Shown here: piece by piece, positions 18,828 to 20,376 of the stretch
Numbering within the stretch: position 1 is the stretch's first letter
How the letters are laid out: the number at the start of each line of letters is the position of its first letter
Source of the DNA: Clostridia bacterium
Lineage (GTDB): Bacteria; Bacillota; Clostridia; TANB77; CAG-508
DNA length: 39,525 bases
Reading direction: 5' to 3'
NCBI GenBank assembly: GCA_045602745.1
Contig: JAZSCD010000139.1
Location: 1 to 39,525 of the forward strand
The notes under the pieces: generated by a model
Seen by the model: only the letters and a program-made list of their open reading frames with translations
Told to the model about the DNA's origin: nothing
Databases searched by the model: none
Position numbers and translations under genes: made by a program

Positions 18828-19440
18828 TATTTAATCCCCTTTTCTTTTATAAACACAATGCAATAATATACTAGGAATCGAACCTACTTATATGAGTTTT
18901 CCTGCTCACTCGTTACACCAGTTCACGATACTATTTACCAAAATAGATAAAAATTTCAGGAATTGAACCATTTTATATTATTGCATTCTATCTATAAACA
19001 CTACAAAGCAATATTATGGTCTTCTTGCGTTAATTACTCGCAAGCAATATGCTTTTCTAGGATAAAATAATACAAATAGCATACTTACCGTATTATTCTC
19101 TACCTGTGCCTAGATATTTTTTAATATTGCTTTATACTATCTATAGAAGTACATCGCCTCAGCTTTGTACTCCCCTGCTATGCAGAATTTTAATAGATAA
19201 TAACTAGGATATAGCTTGTCTCCATTGCTTCTTCTTTCCTCCAAATAAGATGGTAAAATATAAATGCGTGCTAAATTTATATATTAATGTTGCCTAGTAC
19301 TTTAATATCAATATGTACGGATACTTTATAGTCCACCCGTAAAGACACTCCACGGCTTGTTTTTCACCGCCTCAGGTATCCTGCTTTGCAAGATATTACT
19401 CCCTGGCAGGCTACCATAGGATACCGTTATCAATTCCCCC
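18828..19440 (-). ncRNA. candidate large structured RNA (unclassified; context resembles GOLLD/ROOL-type phage RNAs)
   Basis: ~610 nt without ORFs in a tightly packed genome; visibly more G+C than the flanks; nested helices (GGTATCC 19375-19381 / GGATACC 19419-19425; CCTGC/GCAGG inside); duplicated motif cgcctcag...tactccc(c)tg at 19155-19178 and 19368-19407; adjacent to tRNA-Pro. Confidence 0.35.
18862..18937 (-). tRNA. tRNA-like element, non-canonical (possible pseudo-tRNA or part of the large RNA)
   Basis: Good D-arm (TCGT-GAACTGGTGTA-ACGA) and T-arm (TAGG-TTCGATT-CCTA), but the anticodon stem GTGAG/CTCAT encloses 8 nt (CAGGAAAA) and the acceptor pairs poorly. Confidence 0.25.
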
Positions 19441-19516
19441 TGGTCTAGATATAAGGATTTGAACCTTCACCTAATCTGTCCAAGAGACTTGTGCTACCAA
19501 ATTACACCATACCTAG
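19441..19516 (-). tRNA. tRNA-Pro (anticodon UGG), CCA encoded
   Basis: Hand-folded cloverleaf: acceptor CTAGGTA/TATCTAG, D stem GTGT/GCAC, anticodon stem AGTCT/AGATT, loop CT-TGG-AC, T loop TTCAAAT, discriminator A, CCA; one 49-65 mismatch. Confidence 0.8.
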
Positions 19517-19726
19517 ATTTATAAAATATGTAGATAAGGATTTGCACCTTATATGAAAGCCTTCAGATATACCAACAAACAGCTTTCCTCGACTTTGCCC
19601 TTACTCTCTCCTCGTTGATTTTAAGAGTGTCTACTATTGCAATTTCGATATTATCTTTCTACTATCTACTTTGCTTTACCAATTATAAATTAAATCTATA
19701 ATTGTCTATTCCACCACTACATATTT
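19517..19726 (-). ncRNA. ORF-free segment ending in a tRNA-like T-arm/acceptor (unclassified)
   Basis: TAAGG-TGCAAAT-CCTTA T-arm-like hairpin (19537-19553 region); 3' CTACATA pairs with TATGTAG about 200 nt upstream; no D or anticodon arm recognisable. Confidence 0.2.
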
Positions 19727-19918
19727 CTAATTTTTAAATACACATTGCAAATCTCCATTGATATTTCTTGTTATATGGCATAAATCAGTTGTTTTATTTT
19801 TGCAATCTTTGCATTCTTTTCTTCTAAATTGTTCAAATTCTGATTTTAGTTTATTTGCATGTATTCTTTTCTTTTTCTTGTATTCTCTCATAATGTTGTC
19901 GGCTACGTAACTTTTCAT
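19727..19918 (-). CDS. hypothetical Cys-containing small protein
   Basis: 63-aa ORF, last gene of the early block. Confidence 0.5.
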   Translation of the reverse strand: MKSYVADNIMREYKKKKRIHANKLKSEFEQFRRKECKDCKNKTTDLCHITRNINGDLQCVFKN

Positions 19919-19942
19919 ATTTCATTCCTCCAACTATGTGTA

Positions 19943-20224
19943 TTATATCACATTTTTTGATTTCTCGCAACTCTGTTTTAATAATTTATATTTTTGCTTT
20001 ATTAAACATAATTCTTCTTTCAATGTTGCCTTTTCATCTTCTGCAATATAATACTTATTTAATATAGTTTTATATTGGTTATTTTGTATTTCATAATCTT
20101 TACTATTAACAAAATACTCGTTATAACACGCGACAATCCATTCTAAGTCATTTTTTATTTGTGTGTTAGTAATTTTATCTTTATATTCTATTAAACGTCT
20201 TATTTTGTCTTTTTCATAAACCAT
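19943..20224 (-). CDS. hypothetical protein
   Basis: 93-aa ORF, same-strand packing. Confidence 0.5.
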   Translation of the reverse strand: MVYEKDKIRRLIEYKDKITNTQIKNDLEWIVACYNEYFVNSKDYEIQNNQYKTILNKYYIAEDEKATLKEELCLIKQKYKLLKQSCEKSKNVI

Positions 20225-20376
20225 AACATTTTCTCCTTTAAAAATATTATGCCTTTTCTTTGATGTATTTTATCTCTCCATAATTCTTTGTCTCTCTCCA
20301 ACTCTTAAACTTATTACATTCTTCTTTTGTATCTACTTCTTTACAGAAATATCTTTTAGAACAACATTGACATAGT

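Follow-up and report, generated by a model that had tools for sequence, protein, structure and literature searches.

In the large virulent phages T4 and T5, the tRNA regions also encode small stable RNAs that are co-transcribed and of unknown function (T4 'species 1 and 2', or RNA C and D), along with free-standing homing endonucleases such as T4 SegB. Here we analyze an array of this type in a 39,525-nt stretch of DNA (contig JAZSCD010000139.1 of assembly GCA_045602745.1, from a Clostridia bacterium; hereafter the window), where the region at positions 18828–19726 lies directly before the packaging operon of a phage genome. A sequence-only reading had proposed this region, with its embedded tRNA, as a candidate for one large, ornate RNA in a context like that of GOLLD and ROOL, possibly of a new class. 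Comparison with related loci indicates that the region is a novel form of a known type of phage non-coding region and not a new giant RNA. It is divided into small blocks, which we refer to as U1, tRNA-Pro, modules C, A and B, and the stalk-and-payload hairpins E6 and E5.

As in T4 and T5, a tRNA gene stands head-to-tail with structured RNAs that are not tRNAs in one non-coding block, which is here presumably transcribed; it is contiguous with them on the same strand, and no terminator lies inside the block. One of these RNAs starts exactly at the end of the tRNA (module C, after the CCA), the content of the block is mosaic, and genes for HNH or homing endonucleases are found within it in some relatives. 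Unlike T4 and T5, the genome is about 40 kb in size with all genes on one strand, and the array holds one or two tRNAs directly before the packaging operon. To our knowledge, the family of long-stalk hairpins has no counterpart in T4 or T5.

Bacillus subtilis RNase III cuts the stems flanking pre-rRNA and pre-scRNA as well as sites in the early RNA of phage SP82 (PMC4838370; PMC1935012). In the 16S/23S pre-rRNA and the B. subtilis pre-scRNA, a long helix is formed from both flanks of a folded RNA and is cut on both strands, which releases the inner RNA (PMC1935012; PMC4838370). The stalks of E5 and E6 are built alike, whereas their payloads are short and hypervariable and the stalk base keeps its sequence from payload to payload. 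The stalks also resemble the T7 R sites and the SP82 RNase III hairpins, which are conserved intergenic hairpins, about two helical turns long and with a mismatch at a fixed internal position, that recur within one phage and separate functional units (PMC4838370). Moreover, the last stalk is followed at once by a polypurine ribosome-binding site (RBS), an arrangement similar to the polypurine/RBS sequence of SP82 that acts as a 5' stabilizer (Hue et al., 1995, as cited in PMC7509114). In contrast to the T7 and SP82 sites, the stalks described here carry structured apical payloads of 51–122 nt (in one relative there is a plain hairpin), show no sequence similarity to them, and are cleaved only putatively. 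GOLLD and ROOL RNAs share with our locus a phage or prophage context near tRNA genes, a metagenomic origin and a non-coding, structured nature (PMC5737381; PMC12286853), but the array matches neither model, consists of units of 50–200 nt, and has no conserved 580–800 nt architecture, multistem junctions or pseudoknots. Our literature search for a described equivalent of the array found nothing specific.

Results

The region is a mosaic of separately conserved blocks

Positions are read 5' to 3' from 19726 down to 18828, since all genes of the window lie on the minus strand. The region had been called free of open reading frames (ORFs), and the longest ORF on either strand is indeed only 35 aa. 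At 899 nt it is the largest non-coding gap of the window, about three times the size of the next largest gap between minus-strand ORFs. Relatives were collected via TerL in IMG/VR, via conserved words, via TerL in species genomes and via homologs of the 70-aa protein encoded downstream; in all, 94 loci (labelled L001 and so on) were fetched. None of 50,697 GenBank phage records matched the region by blastn, and scanning IMG/VR for exact copies of two words from its G+C-rich core returned zero matches (the window itself is not in IMG/VR). Looking up the exact flanking small proteins found nothing. The TerL scan of species genomes yielded five contigs from metagenome-assembled genomes (MAGs), none of which had the window's modules at the blastn level, and half of the matches to the word GTGTTTATAGATAGAAT (L022–L026) were rejected as chance matches that have no stalk.

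Relatives whose terminases (TerL) are 84–99% identical carry arrays of 240–930 nt in this slot, with differing sets and orders of modules, and the 0.9 kb is not common to phages whose packaging genes align with the window at 75–88% DNA identity. In L015, the homologs of the same two flanking genes are separated by 242 nt; other relatives have ORF-free arrays of 466–915 nt. Searching the region by blastn against all fetched loci splits it into blocks, each with relatives of its own (Table 1). The order of the blocks also changes: it is tRNA-Pro, C, A, B in the window, A, B, tRNA-Trp, C in L021, and tRNA-Pro, C, A, B, tRNA-Trp, D in L029. The blocks are thus separately conserved, lost and reordered, which is the opposite of what a single ornate RNA would predict.

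Structure in the array is specific to the sense strand. The window array has a fold energy of −217.8 kcal/mol in the sense direction versus −160.5 kcal/mol in the antisense direction (z = −3.0 versus −1.8), and all 13 arrays that were folded are 20–60% more stable sense than antisense. This asymmetry, along with the pattern of G-U pairs in the stalks described below, indicates that the blocks are RNA elements of the coding strand. All strong helices stay within a single block, and no long-range or conserved helix between blocks was found.

Checks by Rfam search and by covariation among relatives had been proposed together with the large-RNA idea. We ran cmscan against Rfam on both strands of 18700–19850 at E ≤ 10, on the whole window at gathering thresholds, and on seven related loci at E ≤ 1. 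The permissive scan returned the tRNA, a 19-bit match to tRNA-Sec and two chance matches to eukaryotic families, and nothing else; tRNA-Pro is the only sound match. At E ≤ 10 there was no match to GOLLD (RF01998), ROOL, tmRNA, RNase P, group I or II introns, 6S RNA, Y RNA/YrlA, T-box or self-cleaving ribozymes. The whole window gave no GOLLD match at gathering thresholds, and the seven related loci gave only tRNAs. ARAGORN -m likewise detected no tmRNA. Covariation, in turn, was found within the stalks, module C, module B and the E6 payload, but in no helix linking blocks. A single large structured RNA was rejected on the grounds that the blocks differ in their relatives and order and that the strong helices all lie within blocks; ROOL in particular was rejected because it has no Rfam match and no architecture of ROOL size is conserved among relatives, whose arrays of 242–915 nt differ in content. 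What stands of the original proposal is a non-coding, minus-strand region with covarying structure beside a tRNA, part of which matches no Rfam family; the single large RNA is unsupported.

Two further features of the related arrays were observed. An element of about 200 nt, G+C-rich and bounded by gcaggttgaaagcgtgggttccacag...ggagtcacgctttgagcc, heads the array in L019 (4700–4905 (+)) and L066 (1–150 (+)); it appears to be highly structured, and Rfam had no match for it at E ≤ 1. Genes of the HNH/NUMOD homing-endonuclease type lie in or beside the arrays of L019 (5237–5737 (+)), L037 ((−) ~7000–6600) and L092 (593–1141 (+)), and may drive the cassette mosaicism.

Table 1. Features of the array and its flanks in minus-strand order, with the loci related to each block.
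Feature	Position	Strand	Basis	Related loci
Near-consensus sigma-A-type promoter (TTGCGA, 17 nt, TG-n-TATAAT)	19942..19970	(−)	10/12 match plus TG extension; upstream of 63-aa gene	
U1, tRNA-like element	19526..19723	(−)	ARAGORN only with -i -ps85 and a 118-nt 'intron'; no Rfam tRNA match	none
tRNA-Pro(UGG) gene	19441..19516	(−)	ARAGORN Pro(tgg); Rfam RF00005, 52.1 bits versus gathering 29	L029 only
Module C, G+C-rich structured RNA, ~125 nt	19313..19440	(−)	four copies; starts directly after tRNA CCA	L021, L029, L037
Module A, 5' hairpin with loop GUACUAGGCAAC, variable interior, then AUAUCCUAGUUA	19197..19311	(−)	conserved ends in ten loci	L001 (two copies), L015, L019, L021, L028, L029, L057, L065, L085, L090; interiors unrelated
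Module B, CUGC-AUA-GCAG then GGAGUACA...UGUACUUC, two-hairpin motif	19143..19191	(−)	second stem covaries	L021, L029, L060/L063; L072/L074 in unrelated gene context
E6, stalk-and-payload hairpin, 24-bp stalk, 105-nt two-hairpin payload	18993..19145	(−)	inverted repeat I2; minimum-free-energy fold; stalk statistics	L065, L094
E5, stalk-and-payload hairpin, 23-bp stalk, 103-nt payload	18848..18996	(−)	inverted repeat I1; minimum-free-energy fold; stalk statistics	stalk and T-arm end in L081–L083; interior unique
Polypurine ribosome-binding leader AAAGAAAAGGGG and ATG of first post-array gene	18825..18847	(−)	read from sequence; begins directly after base of last stalk	

Stalk-and-payload hairpins

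The two strongest inverted repeats of the region, with arms of 25 and 26 nt separated by 103 and 105 nt, are E5 and E6, two members of the stalk-and-payload family. Throughout the related arrays, every sequence beginning with UAUA(A/G)AUAG or UAUAAUUGU has its pairing partner downstream in ...GUGUUUAUA or ...AGAGUUAUA. Stalks inside arrays are 22–26 bp long and enclose 51–122 nt, and every motif-flanked module that we found has a stem of at least 19 bp. To quantify the pairing, 17 distinct stalks, picked by their flanking words and not by pairing, were aligned and their pairs counted, with 500 shuffles and slid partners as controls. Stalk cells are paired in 94.4% of cases versus 73.8% in shuffles (a level reached in 0 of 500), although these sequences are related and the shuffle figures are therefore not probabilities. 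Changes on both sides are seen at 14 of the 24 pairs, and the covariation score is 0.58, compared with 0.20 for shuffles and 0.05–0.17 for slid partners. All 17 stalks have U-G at pair 7 and a G-G mismatch at position 9. G-U cells number in the dozens, and A-C cells, which G-U would become on the other strand, are absent; the helix therefore exists only in the sense-strand RNA. In length and helical character, and in these features only, the stalks (22–26 bp, 94% paired) agree with an RNase III site of roughly two turns of double-stranded RNA.

In the window, L029 and L081, one and the same stalk bears different payloads. Relatives have at least nine payload types between them, of which E1, E2 and E3 each recur in several arrays. 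In L090 (2510–2566 (+)), a stalk without any payload stands directly before the RBS; it is a plain hairpin of about 57 nt that shares the conserved base. E6 has orthologs in L065 (92% identity) and L094, and its payload hairpin CUUGCG/CGCAAG (19044–19024) changes to CUUACG/CGUAAG in the former and to UUUGCG/CGCAAA in the latter. The interior of the E5 payload has no homolog among the fetched loci. This payload holds a weak tRNA-like stretch (18863–18934) whose T-arm-like hairpin abuts the 3' strand of the stalk, and the same arrangement of stalk and T-arm is seen in L081–L083, for L081 in its last module. Overall, the stalk family is well supported.

Y RNA/YrlA combines a long stem with a tRNA-like domain and binds Ro60. 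E5 and the last L081 module are similar in joining a long terminal helix to a stacked T-arm-like hairpin, but there is no Rfam match, the window has no Ro60/TROVE gene, and most payloads are not tRNA-like. We rejected a Ro60-binding Y RNA for want of that gene in the window, and a retron RNA because the window encodes no reverse transcriptase. Cassettes like those of integron attC sites were also rejected, as the core sites do not fit and the payload is inside the hairpin rather than between hairpins. Neither the stalk-and-payload family nor module C matched any Rfam family.

Some side observations concern this family. A further stalk-like module with a 19-bp stem lies in L065 (4830–4982 (+)), about 2 kb downstream of the main array and just before a purine-rich RBS; being outside the main array, it indicates that the stalk element may not be restricted to one slot. 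The 9-nt loop AGUAAUUAA is identical in hairpins with unrelated stems, namely CUUGCG/CGCAAG (loop at 19038–19030 (−)) and GUGG/CCAC in the E3 payload of L037/L060. GAGUAAU words related to this loop occur in modules C and D, and the loop may be a common recognition or loop-loop contact motif.

Modules C, B and A

Each of the four copies of module C begins at the nucleotide after a tRNA CCA, which belongs to tRNA-Pro in the window and L029 and to tRNA-Trp in L021 and L037. All four contain the 33-nt invariant core GUGGAGUGUCUUUACGGGUGGACUAUAAAGUAU. Covariation was read from a hand-corrected alignment of these copies. In the hairpin UAUCUUGC-AAA-GCAGGAUA (19395–19388/19384–19377), three pairs change on both sides, and L037 replaces the stem outright by UAUUCUAUU/AAUAGAAUA. 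A long-range helix, ACGGU/GCCGU (19427–19423/19356–19352), has one pair changed on both sides, as does a GGGA/UCCU helix that crosses it; because they cross, the two are either a pseudoknot or alternative folds.

Nested helices had been read from the window sequence in this module. The complementary words GGTATCC/GGATACC and CCTGC/GCAGG exist, but each of the three other copies breaks 1–2 of their pairs, and both overlap the covarying hairpin at 19395–19377. CCGT/ACGG is a possible helix in all four copies, but the sequence there is invariant and two other helices compete with it. The duplicated motif that had been described, CGCCTCAG followed by TACTCCC, is present at 19155–19174 and 19368–19403, but only its GGGAGUA half is conserved in the C and B modules of relatives. 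The pair occurs exactly twice in the window and in none of 100 shuffles, a test that was made post hoc.

The open frame through module C is interrupted by stops in L021 and L037, and a six-frame tblastn of the region matched only homologous non-coding modules, in all frames. There is therefore no decayed gene in the region, and a protein-coding gene or pseudogene was rejected, given the 35-aa maximum ORF length and stops in two of the four copies. Among other candidates, a T-box-like GGGUGGAC in module C has no model match, and a hammerhead-like CUGAGG...GAAA does not have the required core and is not conserved in L029. An 18-mer from module C hit 19 metagenome stretches, of which 18 were chance matches inside unrelated sequence of high G+C content, and a degenerate word from the 5' end of the module detected no new copies.

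Module B likewise covaries, its second stem GGAGUACA/UGUACUUC being replaced by GGAGUGCA/UGCACUUC. In L072 (2913–2965 (+)) and L074 ((−) 8197–8145), an endolysin gene immediately precedes it and tRNA-Gln and tRNA-Trp immediately follow. This context suggests that module B moves together with tRNA genes and not with the packaging leader.

In module A, the interiors between the conserved ends are about 25–110 nt long and unrelated in sequence among loci. ACUAGG (19296–19291) is complementary to CCUAGU (19208–19203); the former is located in the loop of the conserved 5' hairpin and, in most relatives, the latter sits in a 3' hairpin loop. The variable interior may thus be enclosed by an intramolecular kissing-loop or a pseudoknot. 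A further CUAGGCA is present within the E6 payload at 19113.

The region had also been described as richer in G+C than its flanks. It contains 33% G+C versus 28% for the window and includes the maximum among all 300-nt segments of the 39.5 kb (0.41, starting at 19326), but the enrichment is local and restricted to 19143–19516. The enriched blocks are module C (0.46), tRNA-Pro (0.40) and module B (0.39), whereas A, E5 and E6 (0.29 each) and U1 (0.32) are at or close to background.

The tRNA gene and tRNA-like elements

The one canonical tRNA that had been recognized by eye was recovered by both ARAGORN and Rfam. It has the cloverleaf of a tRNA, with C1-G72, A73 and an encoded CCA end as read from the sequence alignment, and its place is taken by tRNA-Trp in many of the relatives that lack an ortholog. 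Codon use of the phage fits this gene: CCA is the main proline codon (125 of 205 overall; 85 of 125 in genes below 18900). This preference supports tRNA-Pro(UGG), which is probably functional.

Two tRNA-like fragments had been noted as well. Both exist but are weak: neither 18863–18934 nor 19526–19723 reaches the tRNA gathering threshold, and ARAGORN reports them only at thresholds of 80–85%. The former, on the minus strand within E5, matches tRNA-Sec with 19.2 bits (E 0.79) and has an anticodon loop of 8 nt. The latter, U1, has a 7–10 bp acceptor-like outer stem UAUGUAG/CUACAUA (10 of 10 complementary at 19524–19533/19717–19726). An insert of about 120 nt separates this stem from a T-arm-like hairpin, UAAGG-UGCAAAU-CCUUA. 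The T-arm of U1 is identical to that of tRNA-Pro at 16 of 17 positions, and U1 had no blastn match in the 94 fetched loci. A tmRNA-like identity for U1 was rejected since there is no tag frame, G3-U70 pair or model match, and a group I intron within a tRNA was rejected because 118 nt is too short and no model matched.

Position and probable transcription of the array

The array is followed on the same strand by genes for a 70-aa protein, a 117-aa protein, TerS, TerL and the portal. Its last block, E5, leads into the RBS of the first of these. This junction, from the stalk base through AAAGAAAAGAGGUAA to the ATG, is kept in every related array, and the last stalk always ends right before a polypurine leader AAAGAAAAG(A/G)GG and the start codon.

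The promoter at 19970–19942 lies beyond the region first described, is conserved in L001 and L015, and is the likely source of transcripts running through the array. No terminator-like site was found in 18300–20300, and thus none between this promoter and the packaging genes. Promoter-like sites within the array are no commoner than in shuffles (12 versus 13.1). In L029 and L037, a terminator-like hairpin lies 5–15 nt before the first tRNA, so the array there would be made only by read-through.

The array heads of L021 ((−) 4957–4850), L029 ((−) 5280–5143) and L037 ((−) 6590–6409), and also those of L057 and L060, consist of an extended −10 promoter, a short leader with AAAAGGUCCC and a terminator-like hairpin directly before the first tRNA, a layout reminiscent of promoter-terminator pairs under antitermination control. 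Just upstream, L029 and apparently L021 encode a small, regulator-like protein; the window is without that gene.

Elsewhere in the window, the 117-aa protein encoded two genes downstream of the array (18261–18614 (−)) has an HExxH motif (HEIIH) and matches only PHROG family phrog_1233, of unknown function (E 3e-26). A full-length match to skipping-rope RNA (RF02924; 53.9 bits versus gathering 36.7), a class of unknown function (PMC5737381), is located at 13429–13599 (−), in the gap between ORFs 13595–14572 and 13168–13368 inside the head-gene module. A second tRNA gene, tRNA-Cys(GCA), is found at 37298–37371 (−) with 63 bits, in a 117-nt gap between ORFs far from the array.

Discussion

We consider it somewhat probable that the region is a transcribed non-coding leader or spacer before the packaging-morphogenesis operon, made of a mosaic array of independent coding-strand RNA cassettes. 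In the mechanism that we favour, the array would be co-transcribed and then processed by tRNA enzymes and RNase III. It would be part of a long late transcript from the strong upstream promoter, which in some relatives would need to read through the terminator heading the array. RNase P and 3' trimming would free tRNA-Pro, the reader of the preferred proline codon CCA, and the same tRNA-processing cut would set the 5' end of module C. The two-turn stalks could be cut or bound by a double-strand-specific factor, most plausibly the host RNase III. Such cleavage would separate the small RNAs from the mRNA, whose 5' end would be guarded by the remnant of the stem and the polypurine RBS. Payloads may be insertions in the apical loop of the stalk, and recombination at the conserved bases of the stalks may swap them, perhaps with the aid of the HNH endonuclease genes located inside some arrays.

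Several points weigh against this leader reading. Its transcription, processing and cleavage steps are all inferred. The window does not have the promoter-terminator head that is present in several relatives, and the labels of the MAGs with related contigs range over Bacilli, Mollicutes, Lachnospiraceae and Clostridia. Module C, whose fold is for the most part tentative, is known from four copies only, and U1 and the E5 payload are without homologs. Furthermore, the basal 9–11 bp of the stalk are conserved beyond the needs of pairing, which could equally fit a specific protein, a DNA-level site or a recombination junction.

A bolder interpretation, which we hold as tentative and rather doubtful, is that E5 and E6 represent a new class of phage RNA cassette. 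Here a conserved stalk of 22–26 bp with a fixed G-G mismatch, serving for recognition or processing, would present swappable payloads, some of them tRNA-like, that act in trans, for example by decoying host defences or by aiding late gene expression. Exchange of cassettes would diversify the arrays, and module C would be a second new small RNA arising from the cut at the tRNA 3' end. It is likewise unlikely that the payloads, module C and U1 are trans-acting small RNAs, either tRNA mimics or decoys against host defences that target tRNAs or sense RNA, or phage cofactors, with the stalk serving as a handle for excision and exchange. The three copies of E6 with two independent compensatory changes, the recurrence of E1, E2 and E3, the T-arm-like hairpins abutting the stalk in E5 and L081, the loop AGUAAUUAA common to hairpins with different stems and the invariant core of module C all agree with a role in trans. 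However, a stalk without payload exists in L090, payloads are highly interchangeable and often unique, and the window encodes no partner such as Ro60 or a reverse transcriptase. Beyond the one 19-bit match, the Rfam models for tRNA, Y RNA and tmRNA match nothing in these elements.

It is improbable that, apart from tRNA-Pro, the region is neutral debris of decaying duplicated tRNA genes and recombination scars in a hot spot for accessory DNA. The degenerate T-arm copies in U1 (with its 16 of 17 identities to tRNA-Pro) and the E5 interior, the absence of homologs of both elsewhere, the fast turnover of arrays even among phages with 84–99% identical TerL, and the HNH genes inserted in some arrays would be expected of such debris. 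On the other hand, the stalks hold 22–26 bp of pairing and an invariant mismatch position through complete replacement of their sequence, modules C and B and the E6 payload have compensatory changes, every array is more stable in the sense direction, and module B recurs in an unrelated phage context. Still less probable is a function at the DNA level, in which the repeated words TATAGATAG/GTGTTTATA and the long inverted repeats would be terminase sites (pac/cos), cruciforms, or targets of site-specific recombination or homing. Basal words that are conserved in sequence and repeated about 150 bp apart upstream of terS, in a cassette-like mosaic with neighbouring HNH genes, are what would be expected of such sites, but the stems pair only with G-U allowed and only on the coding strand, and their distal parts covary freely, unlike a sequence-specific DNA site. 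In addition, two genes separate the array from terS, and the size and content of the array are not conserved, as a packaging site would require. A single RNA of about 900 nt comparable to GOLLD and ROOL is the least credible possibility and is contradicted by the comparative data. The phage context, the adjacent tRNA, the provenance of all relatives from metagenomic phage or MAG contigs and a sense strand that folds better than shuffled sequence (z = −3.0) do suit it, yet it has no Rfam match at E ≤ 10, each of its blocks is kept, lost or moved independently of the others, the blocks fold within themselves with no conserved helix found between them, and relatives make do with as little as 242 nt.

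These results remove a false lead, in that the region is not a new giant RNA, and provide a concrete, testable object in its place. They show phage tRNA genes embedded in fast-evolving arrays of small structured RNAs. The covariation of the stalks is unusually clean, and their position suggests a role in the making of late mRNA. If the stalks are processing sites, the array would be a compact case of a small Firmicutes-type phage coupling its tRNA supply to the maturation of late mRNA. If instead the payloads act in trans, such arrays would provide a pool of small phage RNAs that can be exchanged and are of a kind that Rfam does not yet list.

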